Part shown: positions 11,612 through 64,000 of the stretch, one piece after another
Layout of the letters: each line of letters begins with the position of its first letter
How positions within the stretch are numbered: the stretch's first letter is position 1
Assembly: GCA_963761305.1 (NCBI GenBank)
Contig: CAVXGK010000002.1
Coordinates: forward strand, 1,312,001-1,376,000
DNA from: an uncultured Gemmatimonadaceae bacterium
GTDB taxonomy: Bacteria; Gemmatimonadota; Gemmatimonadetes; Gemmatimonadales; Gemmatimonadaceae
Direction of reading: 5' to 3'
Length of the DNA: 64,000 bases
Program-made: the position numbers and the translations under genes
Notes under the pieces: model-generated
The model's database searches: none
Told to the model about the DNA's origin: nothing
Seen by the model: only the letters and a program-made list of their open reading frames with translations

Positions 11612-11833
11612 TTGCTTCGTATCACGCAGGAACGCGCCGAGCGCATCGCGAAGAGCCACGCGTGCGAGAACTGTGGCGAGTACAGTTATAAGAAGCTCAA
11701 GGTGAAACCGGCGCCGCCGACCACCGGTGAGCTCGCGTCGGTCAGGTGGATCGCCAACAAGGTGTGCGGCGTCTGCGGCATGGAGGTCGAGATGGGCATC
11801 GACGCCGAGGGCGAGATTATTTACGTGTCGTAG
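11612..11833 (+). CDS. Small Cys-rich (zinc-ribbon-like) protein
   Basis: CENC...CGVC; starts 3 nt after the SPFH stop. Confidence 0.7.
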   Translation: MLRITQERAERIAKSHACENCGEYSYKKLKVKPAPPTTGELASVRWIANKVCGVCGMEVEMGIDAEGEIIYVS

Positions 11834-11867
11834 GACGGGTGGACGAGTGGACGGGTGGCGGTGGACC
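11833..11867 (+). repeat. Intergenic octamer tandem repeat (GGTGGAC[C/G] family)
   Basis: ggacgggt-ggacgagt-ggacgggt-ggcggt-ggacc. Confidence 0.75.
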
Positions 11868-12180: not shown

Positions 12181-12220
12181 TTCCACCGTCTACCGGTCCA
12201 GCGGTCCAGCGGTCCACCCG
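12181..12220 (-). repeat. Intergenic octamer tandem repeat (GTCCA[C/G]CG on the + strand)
   Basis: accggtccagcggtccagcggtccaccc. Confidence 0.75.
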
Positions 12221-13814: not shown

Positions 13815-13845
13815 TCCACGGTCCACCGGTCCACCGGTCCACCGG
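13815..13845 (-). repeat. Intergenic octamer tandem repeat
   Basis: tccacg-gtccaccg-gtccaccg-gtccaccgg. Confidence 0.8.
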
Positions 13846-21583: not shown

Positions 21584-21610
21584 CCGGTTCACCGGTCCAC
21601 CGGTCCACCC
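21584..21610 (-). repeat. Intergenic octamer tandem repeat
   Basis: ccggttca-ccggtcca-ccggtcca-ccc. Confidence 0.75.
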
Positions 21611-21620
21611 GTTGGTGCCA

Positions 21621-23408
21621 ATGAGATTTGGTTTCCGCCTTCCCCTCATCCTGGCTCTCGCCGGCGCCGCGACCGGCCTCGCGTGCTCGAGCGACGAGGA
21701 CGCGACCGATCCATCCGCGCCGATGAATCTCGAGATCTTTCTGACGCCGCCCGCAGTCCAGCTCGCGGTCGCCGACACGATCACGACGGCGAACAGTGTC
21801 AAGCTGATTCTGTCAGCGACGTCGCTCGGGTTTCCGGTCGTCACGCCGCACGCCGAATGGACCAGCTCGGATCGGACCGTCGTCATCGTCGACAGTACGG
21901 GATTGGTGCAGGCCGTGGGCTTGGGGCTCGCCACGGTCACGGCGCGTGTGAACGGTGAGAAGGCGCAAACGACGGTGAGCGTGGTACGGCGGGTCGTTTC
22001 CGTGACGCTCACGCCGCAGACGTTCCAAGGTCTCGTTGGCGACACAACGACAGTCGCGGCGAGCGCGGTCGATGCGCAGGGCTTGGCGGTGGGTGGAACG
22101 ACGTTCGCGTTCACGTCGACCGACCCGACCGCGGTGAGCGTGGTTCGAACCGGCAACCAGACGGCCAAGATCACGCTGCTCAAGCCGGGATCGGCTGGGG
22201 TGACCGTGGCTGCCGGCGGCCAGTCGGCGGCGACGTCGGTGACGTCGTTCTCGACGGATTTCACCAGCGCCGTCGCGACGAACGCGCCGACAGGGGCTTT
22301 GGTCCTCGCCGCCGGTCAAGATGCGACCTGCGGCATCATCGCGCTGGGTCGAAGCTTTTGTTTCGGCATACAACCCCCCGTTGGAATCGCGAAGGACTCG
22401 AGCTGCTTCAACGACCACCAGCCGGCAGGCCCGTTTCCCTGCACGCTCGTTCCGCTGCGCATCGCCGGCGCGCTGAGCTTTGCGTCGGTGAGCGTCGGGG
22501 ATTCAGTCGCCTGCGGTGTTACGACCGGGAATCAAGCCTATTGCTGGGGACTGCAGACGTATGGACAGCTCGGCAATGGCATCGCTACGACCGGAACGTC
22601 AGCGGCGCCGAATCTCGTGATCGGAGCGTCGTCGCGTTCCGCCGTGTTGTTGAGCCGCGTCTCGGCGGGACGAAATCACGCCTGCGGCCTAACGCCAAGC
22701 GGCGCCGCCCTCTGTTGGGGTCAAGACTCGACCTTCCAGCTCGGCACCGGCGATTCGCTCCTGGTGAACTCGAGCACGCCGATCCCGATCAAGAGCGGCG
22801 TGTCCTTCACGCAGATCTCCGCCGGTGGGAACCACACCTGCGCTTTGTCGAGTGGTGGCACGGCGGTGTGCTGGGGCGACAACACGCAGGGGCAGATTGG
22901 CATCGGAACCGACGGCAACGTCGTTGACACGCCCACGGCCGTCGCAGGCGTCTTCGCTCAAGTCTCGGCCGGCGGGTCACACACGTGCGCGCTTACGCCG
23001 GCCGGCGCAGCCTTCTGCTGGGGCTCGAACGACTCGGGGCAGGTCGGCAACGGAACGCAGACCGCGGCCACGACGCCCGTGGCCGTAACCGGCGGGTTCA
23101 CGTTCAAGGCGATTAGCGCGAGTCGATACGGCACGTGTGGCATCACGATCAACGGCGCCGCCGTCTGCTGGGGAAGCAACCAATACGCTCAGACGGGTTC
23201 CGGCTCGGTCAGCACGCCGAGACTCGTGCCAACTCCGGTGATTGGCGGGCACACTGATTTCGTTGCGATCGCGTCCGGAGTTCGGCACAATTGCGCGCTC
23301 GCAGCCAGTGGCGCGTTCTGTTGGGGCTCGAACGTCTTCGGCGCACTCGGGAATGAGTTACAGGCGATGATTCAGTTCACTCCCACCAAGACCGCGACCC
23401 CGCAGTAG
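21621..23408 (+). CDS. Lipoprotein with Ig-like domains and RCC1 repeats
   Basis: Lipobox GLAC; WTSSD Ig-like repeats; repeated SAGxxHTCAL...CWGxNxxGQLG. Confidence 0.92.
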   Translation: MRFGFRLPLILALAGAATGLACSSDEDATDPSAPMNLEIFLTPPAVQLAVADTITTANSVKLILSATSLGFPVVTPHAEWTSSDRTVVIVDSTGLVQAVGLGLATVTARVNGEKAQTTVSVVRRVVSVTLTPQTFQGLVGDTTTVAASAVDAQGLAVGGTTFAFTSTDPTAVSVVRTGNQTAKITLLKPGSAGVTVAAGGQSAATSVTSFSTDFTSAVATNAPTGALVLAAGQDATCGIIALGRSFCFGIQPPVGIAKDSSCFNDHQPAGPFPCTLVPLRIAGALSFASVSVGDSVACGVTTGNQAYCWGLQTYGQLGNGIATTGTSAAPNLVIGASSRSAVLLSRVSAGRNHACGLTPSGAALCWGQDSTFQLGTGDSLLVNSSTPIPIKSGVSFTQISAGGNHTCALSSGGTAVCWGDNTQGQIGIGTDGNVVDTPTAVAGVFAQVSAGGSHTCALTPAGAAFCWGSNDSGQVGNGTQTAATTPVAVTGGFTFKAISASRYGTCGITINGAAVCWGSNQYAQTGSGSVSTPRLVPTPVIGGHTDFVAIASGVRHNCALAASGAFCWGSNVFGALGNELQAMIQFTPTKTATPQ

Positions 23409-23592
23409 TAACGCCCGCTGGCGATTGGGCTCGAACTATTCGGCCCGACCATCCGTCAGTGAAAGCCGTGCAACGCCATCGCTCGGCGAGACGCCAGGCC
23501 GAAGTAAAGGTTGACTCTCGTGCCGATGCGGTCCGATGGAGTCGTCCAACGCGACTGAGTTCGGTCCGCCGACGATGGAGTTCGCTCCCTCG

Positions 23593-23638
23593 CTCCGTGA
23601 CTTCGGTCGTTAGCTCCGTGACTTCGGTCGTTAGCTCC
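23593..23638. repeat. Perfect 21-bp tandem duplication
   Basis: CTCCGTGACTTCGGTCGTTAG twice, plus a partial third copy. Confidence 0.9.
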
Positions 23639-24714
23639 GATTTTCGGCAGTCCGCAGCGAGCGATCGACGTGGGCTCGAGGCCGAGCGCATCGGCACGGG
23701 CCGAAACCACGGAGAGCATCGCTCGTCGGATCCGCGGGTCGTCGCGCGTTCCGGTGTTCAAATGTGGATTGTGGCCGGGAGGTGAGCGCGGTTCCACCGT
23801 CGGCGGCGAACGAAGCGTAGTCCGTCGTGCATCGACGCCGAGAGGACGCGAACTGAGGGCGGTCGTGCGTCGAGTGAACGCGGGCTGTCGACGACTGCTT
23901 CGAGCAGATGACGACGGAAACGTCGGGCGTTGACGACTAAGTTCGAGCGGCGTGGCGCGCACGCCACAGCGGTGCGAAGTGAATTCGCGTCGTGGTGAGT
24001 ACCCTTCGAGCGACGCCGGACTCACGGCGAGGACTCACGAGTTGAAATCGGGGATCGACGAGTTGGTCTCGCGATCGACGCGAGTTTTCGCCGACACATG
24101 GAACGTGAAGTCCGGCCGTGAAAGAGTGGCGTCAGTCATGCGACGCGTACGTTCGGGAATTTTCCACACGCATGCGCAGCGCGGTGGAGTGAATCGGCGG
24201 AGGCGGCGCGGGAATATCTGGACGTACGTGCGTCGATAGTGGATGTGCGTACGTGAACGATGGATGTGCGTGCGCACAGTCTGGTCGGCCAGCGGACCGG
24301 GCGTGCATCCGCAGTGCGCGGCGAAGGCGGTTCCGCAACGCCCGCTATCACCGAGCTGCCGGTGAGATGCAGGGAAGCACGGCTGTCGAGCACTTCGGTG
24401 GTGCCGGCAAGCACTCGGCCGCAGGAGCCAGAATGCGTGCGAACTCCAGGTGACGGTGCGGTTCGGATCGAAGGGAGCGAGCGATCGGTCAATCGGCGCG
24501 GGGGCGCGGGCAACGCGCGGTTCAGCCGACCCGCGTGCACTGCCGCCGTCGGGCAAGACCAGCGTGTGCCGGGGCATTCGTCTTGGCGTCGACGGATGTG
24601 GCCCCGTCGCGCACATACATCAATGTCGCGGCAGCACCGTTTGCAGCGTGTGATCGAAGCTTGCGACCCGAGCGCGGCGCGATGACGACGCAGGTTAGTC
24701 GATGCTCGCGAGGG

Positions 24715-25182
24715 AAAGTCGGACGCCGGACATGATAAGTCCGGCGTCCGCACGAGAAAGTCGAACGCTCGATGATGCAAGTCTGTCGCCCGGACATCCC
24801 AGTCGTGCGGAACCGACGGAAAATGGCTTGGGAGGCTGGCGAAGTCTGGCGCGGGCAATGCGAAATGACTCACTGCCCGAACGAAATCGCGTGACCACCG
24901 GGAGAAGTCGGAGGCCGGGCGAGGCAAGTGATTCGCGCACGGCCGCTTGTCGTCGTCGCGGTGCGGGATATCGAGCAATCGCCGAGGCAGGTCGTTCGAT
25001 GTTCGGTGGAAATCGGCCGCCCGGAGCGTAAAGGCGTCCGCGCGTTCGGGAATCCTCGCCGACCCGGAGTTCAAGTGAAGCGCCGGAGCGGACAAGCCGG
25101 GCGAGCGCGCAACAATGTCCCGCCGCGAACCCATCCAGTCGACCGACGTTCAAGGCAGGTCGTCCGTCGGGCGACGCAACTC
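24715..25182. repeat. Degenerate phased 21-bp array, 23 units
   Basis: A 6-bp anchor (consensus NAARTS) recurs every 21 bp with non-repeating 15-bp spacers. Confidence 0.85.
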
Positions 25183-25313
25183 AAACGAGCGGCCGTCGCG
25201 GATCACTGGCATCGTCAACGAGCAGCGACATCGCTGAGTCGGGAAAAGCAAAGTCGGCGGACGCAGGAACCTTGCACGCCGCTGGTGTATCCAGCGCGTC
25301 CACCATCCCAACG

Positions 25314-26141
25314 ATGACCGCCGGAGGGTATGTGCGCTACCGCGGTTCGATCCTCGTCGCCGTCGTCGTTCCCTCGCTTCTCGCGGCGCAAGCGACGCCC
25401 GCCAGCGGGCCGCGGAGCGACGTCATCCTATCGTTCGAGAACTTCGCGGACCTCTTCGGCAGCCGCCTCGTCGCGGCCTTCGATTCGATTCCGGCAGCGC
25501 GCTACGACTATCGACCGACAACCGCACAGCAGACGATCGGCTACATCGCGCAGCACCTCGAGAACGCGAACTACAGTCTCTGCGAGAGCTTCGCCGACAT
25601 AAAGCATCGGCGAACGCGAAAGGACTCGCTGCCGGACACCGTGAAAGCGCGTTGGCCGAAGGACACGCTCGTCGCTCGGCTAGCGGCATCGCTCCGCTTC
25701 TGCGACACGACCCTCGAGCGTGTGAGCCAACTGCAGTCCGGGGCGCTCGCGAGCTCGCTGCTCGCGTTCGAGACCGACTTGGCCGAGCACTACAGCCAGT
25801 TATCGGCGTACATGAGACTGCTCGGCATCGTTCCGCCATCGGCGCTCCCGCCTGTGCCGCGCCAGACAATCGAGCTGCGGGCCTCCGCCCTCGCGCCGCT
25901 GGTCGGCGTCTATCAGATCGTCGCCGGGCGGCGACTCGACGTGACGATGCATGACGGAATGCTCTTCGTGAAATCCTCAGGTGGCGGCGCGACGGTGCGA
26001 CTCTGGCCCGTGGGCCCGAACGATTTCTTCGTGAACGAGGTGGACGCACAGATCGCCTTCACCCGCGATTCGCGCGGCGCGGTCGCTGGGCTCGTCGTGC
26101 ACCAATACGGTCGTGACCGGCTGGCGGCGCGGGTGAGATGA
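25314..26141 (+). CDS. Exported DinB-family protein with a C-terminal DUF3471-like domain
   Basis: YDYRPT...IAQHL and EHYSQLSAYMRLLGIVPP; C-terminal LVGVYQ...FTRDSRGAVAGLVVHQ. Start is 25314 or GTG 25332. Confidence 0.8.
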   Translation: MTAGGYVRYRGSILVAVVVPSLLAAQATPASGPRSDVILSFENFADLFGSRLVAAFDSIPAARYDYRPTTAQQTIGYIAQHLENANYSLCESFADIKHRRTRKDSLPDTVKARWPKDTLVARLAASLRFCDTTLERVSQLQSGALASSLLAFETDLAEHYSQLSAYMRLLGIVPPSALPPVPRQTIELRASALAPLVGVYQIVAGRRLDVTMHDGMLFVKSSGGGATVRLWPVGPNDFFVNEVDAQIAFTRDSRGAVAGLVVHQYGRDRLAARVR

Positions 26142-26197
26142 GGACGGTGGACGGCGCTTACGTTCCGGGACCGCGTTCAAGCGCACAGGAGGGCGGC

Positions 26198-27190
26198 ATG
26201 CACGGCCTGGCTCGATGGAGACTCTTCGCGCGTGTGATCGGCATCGCACTGCTCGCAATCCCGACGTACGCCGTCGTGGCGCAGCAGCCACGCGCCGCCG
26301 CGGACACGGTCGCGATCGCGGCACTCGCTCGCGATCTCTCGTCCGACGCCAATCGCGGACGCGGCCCGTGGACGCCCGAGAACGCCCGCGTCGCCCGTCA
26401 GCTCTCACGGATGCTCGACCAGCTCGGCGCGCGTCCGGTGTTCGGCAACTCGACGCTCGTGCCGTTCACCACGGAGCCGCGCCCAAAGGACACGGTCTAC
26501 AACGTCGTCGGCGTGTTCCCGGCTCGCGGCGGCGTCACGTCGGGTGAGCTGGTGGGCATGACGGCGCATCTCGATCACCTCGGCGTCGGTCCGCCGGACG
26601 CGACCGGCGACTCGATCTACAACGGCTTTCTCGACGACGCCGTGTCGATCGCGATGATCACCGATGTCGCGCGTCGCTACGTGCAGTCGCCCGGCGACCG
26701 TCCGCTGGTCGTAATGTTCTTCAATCTCGAGGAGCAGCAACTGCTCGGCGCGAAGGCGCTCGCGGCGCGGCCGGACGCCGCGCCGTTCATCGATCGTCTC
26801 AAGCTGCTGATCGGGGTCGATGCCGGCTCGCCGGCCGGCGAAGCGTTGACCTGGCAGATCATGGGCGGCGAGCCGCCGAACGCCGGAGCGCGCATCGCCG
26901 ACTCGCTCGCGCGGGCGCACGGATGGACGACGACGCCGTCGGTGGCGCGGCCGATCAACGACGTCTTCGTGTTCTCGCAACGCGGCGTGCCGATCGTGTT
27001 TCCGATTCCGGGCGCGACCTGGCGCGGCTACACCAAAGAGCAGCACGACGACGCCATGCGCAAATTCGATCACTATCATCAGCCCGCGGATCAGTGGCGG
27101 CCGGACTTTCCGTGGACCGGCACCGCGGCATACGCAGAGTGGCTGTGGCAGATCGTTCAGCGGGCGACGGACAGGCGAGAACGGCTCTGA
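26198..27190 (+). CDS. M28-family metallopeptidase
   Basis: AGGAGG RBS; AHLDHLG, NGFLDDA, FNLEE and YHQPAD motifs. Confidence 0.88.
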   Translation: MHGLARWRLFARVIGIALLAIPTYAVVAQQPRAAADTVAIAALARDLSSDANRGRGPWTPENARVARQLSRMLDQLGARPVFGNSTLVPFTTEPRPKDTVYNVVGVFPARGGVTSGELVGMTAHLDHLGVGPPDATGDSIYNGFLDDAVSIAMITDVARRYVQSPGDRPLVVMFFNLEEQQLLGAKALAARPDAAPFIDRLKLLIGVDAGSPAGEALTWQIMGGEPPNAGARIADSLARAHGWTTTPSVARPINDVFVFSQRGVPIVFPIPGATWRGYTKEQHDDAMRKFDHYHQPADQWRPDFPWTGTAAYAEWLWQIVQRATDRRERL

Positions 27191-27215
27191 CGGCTTGACG
27201 GCCTGACGGCTTGAC
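27187..27215 (+). repeat. Octamer tandem repeat YTGACGGC, about 3.5 copies, after the M28 stop
   Basis: ctgacggc-ttgacggc-ctgacggc-ttgac. Confidence 0.8.
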
Positions 27216-29684: not shown

Positions 29685-29763
29685 GGTGGCGGGTGGACGG
29701 GTGGACCGGGTGGACCGGGACGGTGGACCGGTGGACCGGTGGACCGGTGGACCGGTGGACAGG
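29685..29763 (+). repeat. Intergenic octamer tandem repeat (GGTGGACC, about 8 copies)
   Basis: Longest copy of this family in the window; begins right after the permease stop. Confidence 0.9.
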
Positions 29764-29820
29764 TTAGAATAGCGCGCGATCATTCAACGAACCGCTATCC
29801 GCGCTGAGACCAGTCGACAC

Positions 29821-32248: not shown

Positions 32249-33157
32249 GTGCGCATTCTGGTAACGGCCGCCCTTGCCGCGGCTTTGATTCGAGCGCCCG
32301 CGCTCGCTCAGACCTCGCCGGACTCCGCCCGGCGCGCACCGGAATGTCCAAGGTGCGCCGAGTGGAACGTGTCGCAAACGCCGTTTCGCATCTTCGGCAA
32401 CACGTTCTACGTCGGAACGCACGGACTCGCGGCCGTTCTCGTGACGTCGCCGCAAGGCCATGTGCTGATTGACGGCGCACTCCCCGAATCGGCGCCGCTC
32501 ATCCTGGCGAACATTCGCGCGCTCGGGTTCCGCGTCGAGGACGTGAAAATCATGCTCAACTCGCACGCGCACTACGACCACGCCGGCGGGATCGCGGCCG
32601 TGCAGAAGGCCACCGGCGCGGAGGTCGACGCGAGTCCATGGAGTGCGGCCGTCATTCGGCGCGGCGCGTCCGACCAGGGTGATCCCCAATTCGGGCTGGC
32701 GCTGCCGTATCCGGCGGCATCGTCGGTCCGCACGATAAGCGACGGACAGGTGGTGCGGGTCGGCGATCTCGCGCTCACGGCGCACTTCACCGGAGGCCAC
32801 ACGCCCGGCGGAACCACGTGGACCTGGCGGTCGTGCGACGGCGATCGTTGTCTCGACATCGTGTATGCCGACAGTCAGACGCCGGTGTCGGCCGACGACT
32901 TTCTCTACACACGGTCCGCGGCGTATTCGACCGGCGTGCAGGATTTCGAGCATTCGTTCACCGTGCTCGAGAGTCTTTCCTGCGACATCCTGATCACGCC
33001 GCATCCGGCGGCGTCGAGTTTCTGGGAGCGCATCGCGGCGCGCGATTCGGGCAACATGGAAGCGCTGGTCGATCGCGATGCCTGCCGGCGATTCGCGACC
33101 AACGCGCGGCGCGATCTGGCCGCTCGAATCGAACGGGAAAAGCGCGCGAATCCCTAG
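32249..33157 (+). CDS. Subclass B3 metallo-beta-lactamase
   Basis: Signal peptide; PFRIFGNTFYVGT, SHAHYDHAGG, GHTPG and ITPHP motifs. Confidence 0.88.
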   Translation: MRILVTAALAAALIRAPALAQTSPDSARRAPECPRCAEWNVSQTPFRIFGNTFYVGTHGLAAVLVTSPQGHVLIDGALPESAPLILANIRALGFRVEDVKIMLNSHAHYDHAGGIAAVQKATGAEVDASPWSAAVIRRGASDQGDPQFGLALPYPAASSVRTISDGQVVRVGDLALTAHFTGGHTPGGTTWTWRSCDGDRCLDIVYADSQTPVSADDFLYTRSAAYSTGVQDFEHSFTVLESLSCDILITPHPAASSFWERIAARDSGNMEALVDRDACRRFATNARRDLAARIEREKRANP

Positions 33158-54863: not shown

Positions 54864-55009
54864 GATGTCAGGGTGCTCAGCGGCAAATGCCGTACCCAAC
54901 TGTTAGGGCGCGCGGCCCGTGCGCCAAAGCCGGCGCCGACATGGGTGCGGCGCCGAGGCGAGAATCGGCGAAAAAAACTACGGAGCGCGCCAGGCTTCGG
55001 CTAGCGCCG

Positions 55010-55087
55010 GTGCGGAGACCTGGAACGAGTGCGGGGGCGGTGTGCGGAGACCGGGAACGAGTGCGGTGGCGGGGTGCGGAGAACTGG
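55010..55087. repeat. 32-bp tandem repeat, about 2.4 copies, with a GTGCGGAGAC core
   Basis: Cores at 55010, 55042 and 55074. Confidence 0.8.
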
Positions 55088-56919: not shown

Positions 56920-57077
56920 CAACTCATCTCCATCAATCGAGGAATGACACGTGCCGGCCCTCGGACCGCAATCGCCAGCGTCCAACGATCGAGCGAGCAC
57001 ATCAGCCGAAATCGACGAGGGCTCCGAACGACGGGCGCCACGGTGATTCGGTTCGCGAGGGGGGAAGCGTGACCGAC

Positions 57078-57620
57078 TTACTCAATTAAAGATAGTCGAC
57101 TGCCAGGATCGGGGGGACGAATCGGGCGTCTTGGCGAAGAAATTCCAGCGGGATGAAGGATCCTCCAATTCCCTCTGGCCGCTCGTACCGGGACGGGGGC
57201 GGCCTCGCTTACGTAGTGCACCGAATCGACCCCCGGGGCGAGGAGATCGTCGATTGTCGAACGAAACACGTCGTGAACGACGGGAAACGCGAGCCACGCA
57301 ACGCGTCGCGGCAGCGCGAGGCCCGGCGCAAAACGCTCGTGTTGACTGCGGGACCACGCCATCAGCAACGGAACGTGCCGGGCCGACGCCTCCCCGATCA
57401 CGGTCTCGATGGTCGCCGCCGGTGCGTCCCAATCGCAGATCACCAACGCGGGCTGCGTCCGCATCACCGACAGCCAGGCCGGCTCCGACGTGAGCGGAAC
57501 AATGACCGCCAGCCGACAGTCGGCGACCATGTCGCGAACGAGATCCACGAACAGATTACTGCCGGATGCCACGAGCACTGACCCGCGGCTCACCGCGAAT
57601 CCATCGTCATACAGACTCAT
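57078..57620 (-). CDS. Degenerate receiver-like hypothetical protein
   Basis: QPALVICDWD and alpha/beta pattern; lacks the canonical acidic pocket and Lys. Confidence 0.5.
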   Translation of the reverse strand: MSLYDDGFAVSRGSVLVASGSNLFVDLVRDMVADCRLAVIVPLTSEPAWLSVMRTQPALVICDWDAPAATIETVIGEASARHVPLLMAWSRSQHERFAPGLALPRRVAWLAFPVVHDVFRSTIDDLLAPGVDSVHYVSEAAPVPVRAARGNWRILHPAGISSPRRPIRPPDPGSRLSLIE

Positions 57621-57922
57621 CGGGCTCTCCCAGAAGCAAGAGGAGGCTGACCGAAACGGTCTCGAGAGTCCGGTGCGCGGCGCTGCCGCAAGAGACGCGG
57701 GAGGAACGGTGGAAACACCGCTCACAGTTCTTTAAAACTAGCCTCGGTCGCGTTGCGGCGCTCGGGTGTTCCGGGTAAGTTTATCGTTACGAGACACGCG
57801 CAGCGCGCGGTGACAAGTTCCGACAACCGGGGGCCTGCCGATTGCGAGCGGGCCCTTCGTGCGTCGCGCCACTCGAGAGGGAGACGGGAATCGAACCTCG
57901 CACGCCGCACGATCCGCACGCG

Positions 57923-60900
57923 ATGAGCGTCACGGCCGCCGAGGCGGCCGATCGGCGTCCGATGAAGGGAGCGTTGTTCGGCGCGGCGCGGCTCGCGTCG
58001 CACGCCCGGAAGTTGGCGCGCCGCCACGTCACGGTCCCATCGTCGCCGCCGCGGTGGATCGGCCGGCGCGATCGCGGCCCGTTGCTCTCTCGCCTCGACG
58101 CGACGGGCCGGGTCCTCATCGCCGCACGCGATACACTCGCCGAGGCGTCGGCCGCCGGCGCCGACGTGGGACCGGCCGGTGCGTGGCTGCTCGACAACTT
58201 CTTCATCGTCCTGGAGCAAATTCCCGAGATCCGGGCGACGCTTCCGGCCGCCTACTATAGAGAGCTTCCGAAGCTCGCCGGCGACGGGCCGCGCGCGGGA
58301 TTCCCGCGCATCTACGACGTGATCGAGGAGTTGATCGCCCACACGGACGGTCGTCTCGACGAAGGAAGCGTCTCGCGCATGATCGCCGAGTATCAGCGCG
58401 TCACGCCGCTCACGCTCGGCGAGCTCTGGGCGATTCCAGCCATGCTGCGCATGGGGTATCTCGAGAGCGTTCGCCGGATGGCACTGCGCGCCGCGCGCGA
58501 TGTGGCCGACCGTGCGTCAGCCGACGAATGGGTGTCGCGCCTGCTCGCCGCCACGCTCTCGGGCGACGTCACGAGCGGGCTATCGGCGTTCGTCCATCGC
58601 GGGCCCGACCTGAGCCCGGCGTTCCTCACGCGCTTCCTCCAGCAGATTCGCAGCCGGCGATCCGACTTCACTCCGCTGCTCTGGCTCGAGCAGTGGGTCG
58701 CCGAAGACGTGATGTCGGTGGAAGACGCCGCGCAGCGGTCGGTGCAGGAGCTGGCGCTCACGCAGTTGGTGATGGCGAACTCCATCGCCAGTTTGCGCCT
58801 CGTCACGAGCATCGACTGGATGGCGTTCGTCGAGGCGGCGAGTGCGACCGAGGCCGAGTTGCGCGAGGATCCTGCCGGGACGTACACCGCCATGACACGC
58901 GCGACGCGCGATCGATACAGGCACGCGGTGGAACGGATCGCCAAAGGTGCCAACGTCGACGAGCCGTCGATCGCTCAAGCTGCGGTTCAAGCCTCGCGCG
59001 ACGCGGCGTCCGGAGCGGACCCGCGTGCGCGACACGTCGGATATCACCTCGTCGGCGACGGCCGCTACGGCTTCGAGCGCGCATGCGGGTTCCGCGCCGA
59101 CGCCGCCACGCGTCTGCGCGAAAAAGTCCTCCAACATCCCGCTCGCTCGTACTTCGGCGGCGTGGCGATCGCCGTCGGGCTCGCGACTGCCGCGCTTGTC
59201 ACACCGTTGCACTTCGCCCAGCTCGGCGACCGCACCTTCGGCTGGCTCGCCGTGGTGGTGCTGCTCGTGTTGCTCCCCGCGGCCGACGCCGCGGTGGCGA
59301 TCGTTCACCAACTCGTAAATCTCTTCGTTCCCGCGTCACGACTTCCGCGCCTGGACTACGAGCGCGCCGTGCCCGAGGCCGATCGGACAGCCGTCGTGGT
59401 GCCCCTTCTCCTCGGCAGCGTCGACGCGGTGGCCGGGGCGATCAGCCATCTCGAAGTCCAGTACCTCGCCAACCGCGATCCCCAGATTCGCTTCGGGTTG
59501 CTCAGCGATCTGCTCGATTCGCCAACGGAGCGAGCGCCGGGTGACGAAGCGATCGTCGAGGCGGCTGTCGCCGGGATTCGCGCGCTGAATGCTGCGTACG
59601 GAAACCAGGACGGCGCCACGCCAAACGACGCTCCATTCTACCTGCTGCATCGGCCGCGCCGATGGAACGCGGCTGACGACGTGTGGATGGGGTGGGAACG
59701 AAAGCGCGGAAAACTCGTCGAGTTCAACGAGTTCATTCGCGGGTCGGCCGATCACGCGTTCGAGATCACTGAAGGCGACCTGCCGTGGCTGCGCGGCGTG
59801 CGCTACGTCATCACGCTCGACGCGGACACCGTCCTGCCGCGATCGGGTGCCGCGGCGCTGATCGGAACCCTCGCCCATCCGCTCAACCGCGCCGTGTACG
59901 ATCCAGCGGTCGGCCGTGTCGTGCGAGGCTATGGCATCCTGCAGCCGCGCGTGAGCGTGTCGCTCGCCAGCGCCAGCGAGTCACGGTTCGCCGCCATCTA
60001 CGCCGGACATCCGGGTCTGGATCCGTACACGACCGCCGTCTCCGACGTGTATCAGGACCTGTTCGGTGAAGGGACGTTCACGGGAAAAGGCATCTACGAC
60101 GTCGACGTGTTTCGTCGAGCCACCGACGGCCGCTTTCCCGACAACACCCTGTTGAGCCACGATCTGCTCGAGGGAACGTTCGTGCGCGCCGGGCTGGTGA
60201 CCGACGTCGAGGTTTTCGACGACTACCCGACGCGCTACCTCACGTCCACGCGCCGGACGCATCGATGGATCCGCGGCGACTGGCAACTGCTCCGCTGGTT
60301 GACGGCGCGCCTGCCAGGCCCTCCCGGTTCCAATCGCGATCCGCTCTCGTCGCTCTCGCGATGGAAGATTGCCGACAACATGCGCCGCAGCGCGACGCCG
60401 CTCGCGCAGTTCTCATTGTTCGTCGCCGGATTGTTGTTTCTTCCCGGATCGCCCGCCGCGTGGGTCGCCGTCGCGCTCGCAGCGTTCGGCACGCCGTGGC
60501 TTGTCCCGTTTTTCTTCGCCGCCATCCGTCCACCGCGCGGACAGGCGTGGCGCCCCTACTACGGTGCGCTGGCGCAAGACGGAACGCGCGCTCTTCAGCA
60601 GTTGGGTCTGGCGGTCGTGCTTCTTCCCGATCAGACCCTGCTCGCGGCGGACGCCATCACTCGGACGATCGGCCGCCTGGCGCGCGGCAAGCGCCGCCTG
60701 CTGGAGTGGCAGACGGCATCGCACACCGAGCAGACAACGGGCAATAGCAGATCGTCCGTGTGGCACCGCATGTGGCCGGCGGTGTTGTTGGGCGCGGCCA
60801 CCTTGGCCCTCGTCGCTTGGCGCGGGGCCCTCGATCCGGCGAGAGGAGTTCTCTGGTGGATCTTCGCCGGCGCATGGGCCGCTCTCGCGGTGGCCTGGTT

Positions 60901-63900
60901 GTTCGCCCCCGAGGTGGCCATCGCGCTCAGCAGCCCGCTCACTCGGCGCGATCTCGTGCTCGACGGCGACGAGCGCTCGGCCGCGTTGCGCTATGCGGCG
61001 CGCCATTGGCGCTACTTCGAGCGCTTCGTCACCGCGGACACGCATTGGCTGGCGCCCGACAATTTCCAGGAATCGCCCGAACCAATCATCGCCTCGCGCA
61101 CGTCGCCGACGAACATCGGATTGCAACTGCTCGCGACGGCCTCGGCCTGCGATCTGGGATTCCTCACGCGCGGAGAGATGGTCGAGCGTCTGGAGCGCGC
61201 GTTCGACTCGCTGGACCGGATGTCGCGCGTGCAAGGACATTTCTTCAATTGGTATTCCCTCGAGAATCTGCGCGTGCTCGAGCCGCCATACGTGTCGACG
61301 GTGGATTCCGGGAATCTGGCCGGCCATCTCATCGCGCTCGCCGAGGGGTGCGCCAGCATCGCCGGCGCGCCGGTGGACGACGGACGCATCTGGGCCGCGC
61401 TCGAGGCGGAAGGGGTGGCGCGCGGAGAGACCGGCGGCCCCTGGGTGGGTGAGCGCCTTCTCGCGTACCAGTCGGCAATGCTCGACCTCCGCCGACGCAC
61501 TCAGGTGAGCGCGACCGATTCGTCCAAGTCCGCCACGACGCTCTGGGCGCGGCAGCGCCTTGAAGCCGCCGCCGAGGAGCTCGCGCGGTTCGAGCTCGAT
61601 CCGGAAGGAGATACAGCCGCGTCTCTCCGCACGGTAGCGGCGACGTCGCCGGCGGCCGCCGCCCTGGTCGCCCGACTGGACGCGCTGGCGCGACGCGCGC
61701 GAGAGATGGCGGCGGCGATGGACTTCCGGCTCGTGTACGAACCGCAGCGACGACTCTTCGCGATCGGGTACGACGCGCGGTCGGGAACCCTCGATGACTC
61801 GCTCTACGATCTGCTCGCATCGGAGTCGCGGCTGGCGAGCTTCATCGCCATCTCGAAGAACGACGCCGACGTGGAACACTGGTTCCGTCTCGGCCGGTCG
61901 CTCACCGTGGCGGATGGAGCGGCGGCGCTCGTGTCGTGGAGCGGCACGATGTTTGAGTACCTCATGCCGTTGCTCGTCATGCCGCCGCGGCCGTTCTCGC
62001 TGCTCGATCAGACGTGCCATTCGGCGGTGGTGCGGCAGATCGCGTACGCCAATATGCGCGGCGTACCGTGGGGAATCTCCGAGTCGGCCTACAACGTTCG
62101 CGACCGGCACGACACCTATCAGTACCGCGCCTTCGGTGTGCCGGATCTCGCGCTCAAGCGCGGTCTGGCTTCGGATCTGGTCATCGCCCCGTATGCCACC
62201 GCGCTGGCATTGGCCGTCGATGCGCACGAGGCGTTGCGGAACTTCGCCGAGCTCGAACGGCGCGGCGCGCTTGGCGCGTACGGATTCTATGACGCGCTGG
62301 ACTACACGCGGGTGAATCCCGACGAGCGGGTGGCCACGGTCCGCACGTTCATGGCACATCACATTGGGATGAGTCTCGTCGCACTCGACAACGCGCTGAG
62401 CGTCGGCGAGACGGAAGCCGAAGGCATTTGGCAGCGGCGATTCATGACCGACGCCTCGGTTCGCGCCACGGCGTTGTTGCTGGACGAGCGCGTGCCGCGG
62501 CGATACGTGCCGCGACCGCCGCAGGCCGACGCGCCCACATCCACTCTCGAGGCCACGGCGCAGACGCGCATCGCGGTCCACGAAGTCGACACACCGCACA
62601 CAAGAGAGCCGCACGTCGCTCTGCTCGGCGGACCCGGCTACGGCGTCTTGCTCACGAATTCGGGCAGCGGCAACAGCCGATCGAGAGAGATCGACGTCTT
62701 GCGGTGGCGCGCCGACGCCACGCAGGACGACACCGGCCAGTGGATCTACATCAAAGATCTCACCGACGGCTCGCTGTGGTCCGCCGCGTATCAACCGGTC
62801 CGCGCGGAACCGACTCGGTACCGCGCGACGTTCGCCGCCGATCGAGTGATCTTCGCGCGGCGCGATGGACCAGTGGAGACGCGAACCGAAGTCGTCGTCG
62901 TCGCCAGCGAGCAGGCGGAGGTCCGCCGCGTCACGCTCCTCAATCGATCGTCCGTAGTGCGGGAGCTCGAGCTGACGAGTTACGGGGAGGTCGTGTTGTG
63001 TCCTCCCGGCGCCGACCGTGCCCACCCCGCGTTTCAGAAGCTCTTCGTTGAAACGGAGTGGGTGCCGGCGGCGGCACTGCTGGCGAGCCGTCGCTCCCGC
63101 GCCGCGGGGGAGACGTGGCCATGGTGCGTACACGTCGTCGCGTCGGGCGCCGAACGAGTCGGCGAGGTGACCTGCGAGACCGATCGCGAACGCTTCCTCG
63201 GCCGCGGCCGAACCGTTCACACACCGCACGCTCTCGACGACGGCGTGCAACTGTCCGGTAGCACCGGCGCCGTCCTCGATCCCATCGTCGCTCTGCGCGT
63301 TCGGCTCCGCGTCGCACCGGGCCGTTCGGCCACCGTCGCGTTCACCACGGCCGTGGCGCCCACGCGTGAAGCCGCGCTGCACGTCGCCGATCGCTATCGC
63401 GACGTTGCCGCTTCCGAGCGCGCCTCGAGCCTCGCGCGAACCGAGGCCGAGGTGGAAGTGCGCGACCTCGACATCGAGCCGGCCGACCTCGCGCTCTACC
63501 AAGAGTTGGCGGGCGCGCTCGTCTACCCGCACGAGGCGCTTCGCGCGCCGGCCAGCGAACGAGCCGCCGTGACGCTCGGGCAGCAGGCGCTCTGGGCTCA
63601 AGGCATCTCCGGCGATTGGCCGATCGTGTTGGCGACGATTCGCGCCGTGGCCGGTGTGGCCAGCGTCCGGCAACTGCTCGCCGCACACAGGTACTGGAGA
63701 ACGAAGGGGATCCGAGCGGATCTCGTGATCCTGAACGCGAAACCGCATTCGTACGCGCAGGAGCTGCACGATCAGTTGATGACGATCGCCATGTCCGGCG
63801 AGGGGGGCGTCCTCGAGAAGCCGGGCGGCGTGTTCGTGCGACGCGCCGACTCGTTGTCCGCCGACGAGACCGCTCTCCTCCGAGCGACGGCGCGCATTAA

Positions 63901-64000
63901 CGTGCTCTGTGACGGGGTCGGCCTGGGCGAAATCATCGCCACGAACATTGTGAGCTACGAAACCATCGCCCCCGCGTCGCCAGTCACCGTCCGGCATGCC
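57923..64000 (+). CDS. ndvB: Cyclic beta-1,2-glucan synthase (Cgs/NdvB/ChvB); 3' end runs off the window
   Basis: Absent from the ORF track. Manual translation gives WLLDNF, YYRELPKL, WMGWERKRGKL, VITLDADT, LLSHDLLEG, RWIRGDWQ, YDLLASESRL, PWGISES and FMAHHIGM, all in one frame. Confidence 0.95.
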   Translation, partial: MSVTAAEAADRRPMKGALFGAARLASHARKLARRHVTVPSSPPRWIGRRDRGPLLSRLDATGRVLIAARDTLAEASAAGADVGPAGAWLLDNFFIVLEQIPEIRATLPAAYYRELPKLAGDGPRAGFPRIYDVIEELIAHTDGRLDEGSVSRMIAEYQRVTPLTLGELWAIPAMLRMGYLESVRRMALRAARDVADRASADEWVSRLLAATLSGDVTSGLSAFVHRGPDLSPAFLTRFLQQIRSRRSDFTPLLWLEQWVAEDVMSVEDAAQRSVQELALTQLVMANSIASLRLVTSIDWMAFVEAASATEAELREDPAGTYTAMTRATRDRYRHAVERIAKGANVDEPSIAQAAVQASRDAASGADPRARHVGYHLVGDGRYGFERACGFRADAATRLREKVLQHPARSYFGGVAIAVGLATAALVTPLHFAQLGDRTFGWLAVVVLLVLLPAADAAVAIVHQLVNLFVPASRLPRLDYERAVPEADRTAVVVPLLLGSVDAVAGAISHLEVQYLANRDPQIRFGLLSDLLDSPTERAPGDEAIVEAAVAGIRALNAAYGNQDGATPNDAPFYLLHRPRRWNAADDVWMGWERKRGKLVEFNEFIRGSADHAFEITEGDLPWLRGVRYVITLDADTVLPRSGAAALIGTLAHPLNRAVYDPAVGRVVRGYGILQPRVSVSLASASESRFAAIYAGHPGLDPYTTAVSDVYQDLFGEGTFTGKGIYDVDVFRRATDGRFPDNTLLSHDLLEGTFVRAGLVTDVEVFDDYPTRYLTSTRRTHRWIRGDWQLLRWLTARLPGPPGSNRDPLSSLSRWKIADNMRRSATPLAQFSLFVAGLLFLPGSPAAWVAVALAAFGTPWLVPFFFAAIRPPRGQAWRPYYGALAQDGTRALQQLGLAVVLLPDQTLLAADAITRTIGRLARGKRRLLEWQTASHTEQTTGNSRSSVWHRMWPAVLLGAATLALVAWRGALDPARGVLWWIFAGAWAALAVAWLFAPEVAIALSSPLTRRDLVLDGDERSAALRYAARHWRYFERFVTADTHWLAPDNFQESPEPIIASRTSPTNIGLQLLATASACDLGFLTRGEMVERLERAFDSLDRMSRVQGHFFNWYSLENLRVLEPPYVSTVDSGNLAGHLIALAEGCASIAGAPVDDGRIWAALEAEGVARGETGGPWVGERLLAYQSAMLDLRRRTQVSATDSSKSATTLWARQRLEAAAEELARFELDPEGDTAASLRTVAATSPAAAALVARLDALARRAREMAAAMDFRLVYEPQRRLFAIGYDARSGTLDDSLYDLLASESRLASFIAISKNDADVEHWFRLGRSLTVADGAAALVSWSGTMFEYLMPLLVMPPRPFSLLDQTCHSAVVRQIAYANMRGVPWGISESAYNVRDRHDTYQYRAFGVPDLALKRGLASDLVIAPYATALALAVDAHEALRNFAELERRGALGAYGFYDALDYTRVNPDERVATVRTFMAHHIGMSLVALDNALSVGETEAEGIWQRRFMTDASVRATALLLDERVPRRYVPRPPQADAPTSTLEATAQTRIAVHEVDTPHTREPHVALLGGPGYGVLLTNSGSGNSRSREIDVLRWRADATQDDTGQWIYIKDLTDGSLWSAAYQPVRAEPTRYRATFAADRVIFARRDGPVETRTEVVVVASEQAEVRRVTLLNRSSVVRELELTSYGEVVLCPPGADRAHPAFQKLFVETEWVPAAALLASRRSRAAGETWPWCVHVVASGAERVGEVTCETDRERFLGRGRTVHTPHALDDGVQLSGSTGAVLDPIVALRVRLRVAPGRSATVAFTTAVAPTREAALHVADRYRDVAASERASSLARTEAEVEVRDLDIEPADLALYQELAGALVYPHEALRAPASERAAVTLGQQALWAQGISGDWPIVLATIRAVAGVASVRQLLAAHRYWRTKGIRADLVILNAKPHSYAQELHDQLMTIAMSGEGGVLEKPGGVFVRRADSLSADETALLRATARINVLCDGVGLGEIIATNIVSYETIAPASPVTVRHA

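Follow-up and report, generated by a model that had tools for sequence, protein, structure and literature searches.

Arrays of short motifs repeated every 21 bp lie upstream of the genes of a single protein family across Gemmatimonadota, and a degenerate copy of such an array is present in the window, the 64,000-nucleotide stretch of DNA from an uncultured Gemmatimonadaceae bacterium that was analysed here. Our verdict is that array and protein make up an undescribed two-part system, in which a large unnamed protein family travels with a non-coding array whose conserved property is the 21-bp step and not the sequence. A search of the literature, largely outside subscription journals, found no description of it.

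The 21-bp array in the window

The main array consists of 23 units of 21 bp at 24715..25197, and is assigned to the minus strand from its anchor columns, the polarity of anchors in 37 leaders and a profile match given below. The initial annotation had placed a 6-bp anchor every 21 bp from 24715, and every one of the 23 anchors is present at that step (24715+21k). Their consensus, NAARTS on the plus strand, reads SAYTTN on the minus strand, which corresponds to the sense strand of the family gene in intact copies. Column information summed over the 23 units is 10.35 bits, whereas 2000 base shuffles gave a mean of 2.3 and a maximum of 3.6 bits and 2000 triplet shuffles a mean of 2.8 and a maximum of 4.2 bits, so that the array exceeds all 4000 shuffled controls. 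Furthermore, bases match at a rate of 0.43, 0.44 and 0.43 at lags of 21, 42 and 63, compared with approximately 0.27 elsewhere. The existence of a period-21 array in the window is confirmed.

The 15-bp spacers had been described as unique and non-repeating. Their mean pairwise identity is 0.36, and they are not wholly free to vary, with C at unit position 10 and G at position 11 in 19 of the 23 units each and G at position 15 in 15 of the 23. The tract had also been described as free of indels; unit 17 (25051) does not fit the consensus, and a related strain lacks 1 nt at 25063. The proposed extent of about 470 bp does hold the 23 units, but periodic signal is also present over about 23515-24290. 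The opinion that the tract is not a CRISPR, a REP or a plain VNTR is borne out, and the array is absent from the output of a TRF run.

The tract sits in a 1.9-kb gap between two plus-strand genes that lie outside the element and were assigned by Pfam, one with Ig-like and RCC1-like repeats (21621..23408) and the other with DinB_2-like and DUF3471 domains (25314..26141). Its GC content is 64%, with just four short A-tracts, and scans for promoters and terminators found none. A perfect 11-bp inverted repeat, seen in the sequence and the fold and assigned to neither strand, is centred on the second anchor (24721..24749). We considered and rejected the array as a regulatory element of the dinB-like neighbour, given that it is absent upstream in nine genome relatives and in all 58 metagenome loci, of 80, that were long enough to test. 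A Pfam scan of the 19 genes called between 13.9 and 36.4 kb, three of which are without a family, found no cas genes. Elsewhere in the window there is a metallo-beta-lactamase superfamily gene at 32369-33154, and no complete gene is called from 57000 to 64000, where a long gene probably runs past the window end.

Association with one protein family

Similar tracts and their neighbouring genes, which the annotation had proposed looking for in relatives, converge on one protein family. Period-21 signal is found no more than 900 bp upstream of a family gene at 19 of the 27 testable loci (of 30, two from this genome), and at 22 of 26 further loci from other genera. Arrays are therefore upstream of the gene in 41 of the 53 pooled loci and downstream in 4 of 50 (3/28 and 1/22 in the two locus sets), with a genome background of 49 in 2388 windows; the loci include non-independent kin, and the counts are given without a statistical test. 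The leader of approximately 1 kb is conserved across species. Three database proteins contain the array read through as N-terminal heptads, in different frames, and read-through of this kind explains many spurious heptad "hypothetical proteins".

The family protein has a core of ~210 aa and a Pro/Ala/Thr tail. The family comprises 5065 clusters at 50% identity and is present in 19 of 41 relatives and 38 of 151 genomes of the phylum, at 0-14 copies each, with 14 matches in this genome of which 13 are near full length. Relatives with 88-89% identity come from records labelled uncultured Gemmatimonadaceae, and single-protein queries did not find the family on plasmids, phages or viral contigs. 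The gene is under purifying selection (pN/pS 0.07-0.09). No family passed the cut-off in Pfam (seven paralogs) or NCBIfam, PADLOC matched none of 46 members, and a PDB sequence search with the family profile returned nothing. AlphaFold2 predicts a helical rod (pLDDT 87) with long helices at 33-88 and 137-190, for which Foldseek reported nothing at E<=0.001; the best Z of 9.9 is in the range of generic helical bundles, including the McpS, McpZ and TorS sensor bundles, and no known DNA-binding fold was found. The mean net charge is +10.6, and a Trp conserved in 98% of 196 sequences precedes an arm that contains 811 K/R compared with 157 D/E residues in 154 proteins, only 28 of which carry the AT-hook-like GRP motif.

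Gene-less leaders are common, and such leader-only copies terminate near the start codon. For example, the copy at C2:2696032-2696964 is 88% identical over 933 bp to the leader of P0006, an intact copy of the gene, and breaks off five codons past the start of the coding sequence. A search with the P0006 leader against five congeners found nothing. ECF-sigma-like genes (L002:318-743, L003:2784-3488 and L007:548-1183) are divergent from the leader in 5 of the 14 intact copies. Two gene-less copies retain the first bases of the sigma gene, and both flanking genes therefore appear to have been lost there while the array stayed.

The window copy is likely the gene-less leader of such a dispersed two-part element, a reading based on sequence comparison in which the link to the family is moderate. 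Neither tblastn nor HMM searches found a family gene or remnant at the window locus, and direct DNA homologs of the window array in 40 relatives amount to just chance-like matches of 26-42 nt. The best non-self profile match of the window tract is the array upstream of P0006 (C2:1695300), and the minus strand from 25200 to 24190 is colinear with that leader, with a total score of 91 against a maximum of 73 in 40 unit shuffles. The 3' tail drives this score, and the main tract alone is not above the null. Between the two is a linker (24300..24714, minus strand) that is weakly or non-periodic and about as long as its counterpart in the P0006 leader; the colinear alignment suggests that it belongs to the element, and on its own it scores 36 against a null mean of 38.6, which is not significant. 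It is followed by a short 21-bp sub-array (CACGCAC..CCA; 24190..24299, minus strand) that resembles the 3' end of the P0006 leader in local alignment, scoring 56 compared with a mean of 33.4 and a maximum of 43 in 40 unit shuffles. The gene expected 3' of this sub-array is missing.

A period scan and sister copies reveal a second degenerate period-21 element at 23520..24190 on the plus strand, convergent with the first, such that two gene-less elements abut head to head in the window. It has five sister copies in the genome that are 68-81% identical, none of which adjoins a family gene, and its period and anchor type suggest that it belongs to the same class. An inverted pair of 9-mers (23763-23771 and 24160-24168), approximately 400 bp apart, is kept in the sister copies. 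The 9-mers are DnaA-box-like, and one sister has the perfect box. DnaA boxes were rejected as a general feature of the arrays, given that five strict boxes fall in array zones (3.9-fold) but none in 27 leaders.

A proposed DNA binding track and its alternatives

We would give a probability of about one half to the array working as a DNA binding track for the family protein, with one site per two helical turns, as the charge of the protein and the geometry suggest. The basic helical protein would recognise the short A/T anchor from one helical face, ignoring the sequence of the spacer, and would assemble cooperatively along the array. At intact copies it would cover the region upstream of its own gene, resulting in autoregulation, and gene-less arrays would receive protein in trans, made by the near-full-length genes at other sites in the genome. 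Slippage of whole 21-mers would add units, which would then drift except at the anchor. The array is thereby a candidate ligand for an uncharacterised family, and would represent a mode of nucleic-acid recognition based on spacing. By arithmetic from standard values rather than docking, the predicted rod of two ~55-residue helices is about 80 A long, compared with 71 A for 21 bp of B-DNA.

Pooling 38 leaders gives peaks at 21, 42 and 63, flanked by small shoulders at a distance of 1, and no harmonic at 10-11 bp. This pattern is evidence for a discrete step rather than A-tract curvature, and intrinsic bending, one of the roles that had been put forward for the tract, also finds little to build on in its four short A-tracts. 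Curved DNA with phased A-tracts has A/T-rich motifs on one helical face, from which the arrays differ in their period of 21 and, in the window, their GC content.

Somewhat unlikely is that the array acts as RNA, either a long 5' leader or a separate noncoding RNA, with a repeating 21-nt motif bound or processed by the helical protein (as a scaffold, antitoxin-like or guide-like) and the gene-less copies as orphan RNA genes. The position of the array 5' of the gene and the conservation of the leader across species are as expected of such an RNA, and the anchors of 37 leaders favour one strand with respect to the gene (ACTT 7 vs 0, ATTC 9 vs 1 and TCAC 10 vs 2), a polarity that fits DNA and RNA roles equally well. 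A few leaders fold well, with z of -7.5, -6.0 and -3.4, but the mean in the 24 of 38 leaders tested is -1.6 for the sense compared with -1.1 for the antisense strand, the window tract reaches just -1.45, and Rfam matched none of six loci. An array folding back as one long hairpin was considered and is not consistently seen. A guide role, akin to the variable-spacer array raised earlier, gains no support from the spacers, for which the longest self match is 13.5 nt compared with 12.7 nt in base-shuffled spacers (a weak null), without a clear excess, and for which a phage search returned no match. We favor DNA over RNA because the step corresponds to two turns of B-DNA with a tolerance of 20-22, because there is no conserved structure, and because the long helices of the protein have a matching length.

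It is more doubtful still that, within a real class, the window copy is the decaying remains of a selfish element that lost its gene by deletion and has no present function, and that the even spacing of sites results from insertion exclusion or chance. Patchy copy number among congeners (0-14), truncated genes beside several arrays and the head-to-head pair of gene-less elements in the window are all consistent with such decay. Additionally, 15 pooled paralog pairs (119 units, generic anchor pattern) show no protection of anchors relative to spacers (0.139 compared with 0.134, P=0.81). However, anchors are protected between strains at the window locus itself, where a contig of run X5 that covers the tract differs by 51 substitutions and a single 1-nt deletion over 496 nt and the six anchor columns hold 4 of the 40 listed differences (P=0.004; 10 differences are not shown). 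Also against decay, the gene-less copy at C2:2696032-2696964 differs by 12% from its intact twin with zero indels in about 930 bp; the TT columns hold none of 44 differences between the two. With regard to insertion sequences or MITEs, terminal inverted repeats or target duplications were not visible by eye at the ends of three sub-families, although older ends may be eroded. No transposase or recombinase was matched in Pfam or NCBIfam over the cut-off, and the 330 neighbours of the 65 sites include no recurring transposase or integrase.

That the arrays are non-coding and selected is, in our assessment, real. The annotation had suggested that length and phase are conserved while the spacers drift, and this is what strain, paralog and decay comparisons all indicate. 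Between strains pN/pS is at least 0.87 in all six frames of the tract, which speaks against the heptad-repeat gene offered as one candidate, and the divergence of ~10% resembles that of the whole 24614-26500 contig piece, giving hypermutation no support. Ten paralog pairs, some of them not independent, contain 48 gaps, of which 28 measure 1 nt and 16 measure 20-23, 42, 43, 63 or 126 nt, about multiples of 21; array pN/pS is mostly 0.5-2. When a 21-mer was simulated on a star tree with decay at equal rates, none of the 4000 runs per setting, over six settings, kept the observed A/T core.

We consider it very unlikely that the array codes for a heptad peptide of low specificity (D/H-F/L-x-x-x-x-x), with only two positions that matter in each heptad. 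Degeneracy of the anchor does resemble codon wobble, the minus frame is open over 24136-25134, and pooled spacers show a weak contrary signal, with pN/pS of 0.60 for single-hit codons and 20 stops where 33 are expected, fewer than in column permutations on both strands. Nevertheless, the antisense frame is stop-poor too, third codon positions do not evolve faster (P=0.27), and no one frame showed purifying selection. Indels of 1 nt are frequent and phase slips occur (1-nt slips in L036, alternating 21- and 22-nt units in G076), the intact P0006 leader has in-frame stops, and the window tract scores negatively for coding in all six frames without a Pfam match. An ordinary old VNTR that has decayed neutrally is barely credible, for although several sister sites are young near-perfect 21-bp repeats and unit-size indels occur, simulation rejects equal-rate decay, and units of unrelated sequence share a single period next to genes of one family.

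Chromosomal distribution and known systems

In agreement with the period seen in the window, a motif-free scan of the 5.2-Mb genome found 58 peaks at period 21 compared with 1-24 at each of eight other periods. A looser scan placed 64 of 81 period-21 peaks in non-coding DNA, whereas four other periods gave 3-25, and with one site added from gene position these make up the 65 sites. A gene or remnant of the one protein family lies within 1.8 kb of 19 of the 65. Units at the sister sites range from near-perfect repeats to the degeneracy of the window tract, and unit sequences that are unrelated have the period in common.

The sites are evenly spaced in this genome at ~80 kb, with gap CVs of 0.47 and 0.52. 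When sites were drawn at random from real intergenic gaps the CVs were 0.88-0.91, and not one of 4000 draws was as low as the observed values. Even spacing holds at z cut-offs of 4.5-6 and fades on C2 at 8-10, and with a stricter coding filter P is 0.007 and 0.21. It was not replicated in G005 (1.2 Mb), where 6-8 sites leave a gap of 650-770 kb and leaders are fainter. In G076 (0.4 Mb) three sites, one of them gene-less, are 145 and 148 kb apart. No such array was found in G002 (79% complete) or G026, 0.4 Mb each, in which the gene was not found; their peaks are 7-mers, coding DNA or a REP-like repeat.

We regard as unlikely, if conceivable, a chromosome-wide lattice of ~65 arrays, roughly one per 80 kb, coated by the rod-shaped helical protein from a few intact copies, which would anchor or partition the nucleoid, or else would represent selfish centromere-like elements that exclude nearby insertions. 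Should even spacing hold in more genomes, it would suggest that the chromosomes of these abundant soil bacteria are organised at a level not yet known, or that insertion exclusion operates there.

Partition centromeres with their binding proteins, such as tubC-TubR and parC-ParR, offer a comparison. In tubC-TubR, short motifs are arrayed in phase ahead of the gene whose protein binds them, and the protein spreads along the array and covers the promoter (PMC6009700). The arrangement of array upstream of gene is shared with our loci (41/53), but the window copy lacks the gene, and all-against-all blastp of the same 330 neighbours in this genome revealed no recurring motor NTPase. Unlike plasmid and phage centromeres, the arrays occur in dozens of chromosomal copies, most of them gene-less, and the protein matches no known family.

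The units of TIGR-Tas systems are typically 36 nt long and carry box C/D motifs, and the partner protein has a Nop domain (bioRxiv 10.64898/2026.09.09.750476). Both have degenerate arrays missed by repeat finders, with short conserved motifs, variable spacers and an adjoining protein gene, but the window period is 21 with no peak at lag 36 (match rate 0.246), and a Nop domain is not evident from the Pfam search of seven paralogs or the PDB sequence search. CRISPR repeats are near-identical and about 23-50 bp long, whereas the window has only a degenerate 6-bp anchor, and neither TRF nor Rfam (six loci) gave a match. Type III toxin-antitoxin systems (ToxIN, CptIN and TenpIN) combine near-identical structured RNA repeats of about 34-60 nt, directly upstream of a single gene, with an endoribonuclease, and orphan arrays occur. 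In contrast, the units here are 21 bp and highly divergent (spacer identity 0.36) without Rfam or PADLOC matches. As regards an endoribonuclease toxin, the partner is modeled as all-helical, with no specific fold match and a PADLOC count of 0/46. Two helical families of about 200 aa are weak leads for the partner, DUF6261 (PF19775) with an atlas score of 0.87 in 32% of that cluster, and the NCBIfam PQLLE family (NF052641) at E 7e-5, far below its cut-off, but no partner-family member passes either curated cut-off.

Some leaders, such as those at G000 C2:1101247-1102280 and C1:1083480-1084375 (L002), hold two sub-arrays with oppositely oriented anchors, and have a conserved hairpin ~60 nt before the start codon with varying stems. 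A gene-less array (L015, G000 C2:798130-799100) has the anchor type of the window tract and ends next to an apparent tRNA-Leu gene, judged by eye. Genome-wide there are also about 25-29 non-coding peaks of period 24, which belong to an 8-bp repeat family and are randomly spaced. In the window, 8-bp intergenic tandem repeats of this separate family (such as GGTGGACC) are located at 11833-11866, 12194-12216, 13815-13845, 21584-21609, 27181-27215 and 29692-29764, and a 32-bp intergenic repeat of 2.5 copies at 55009-55087.
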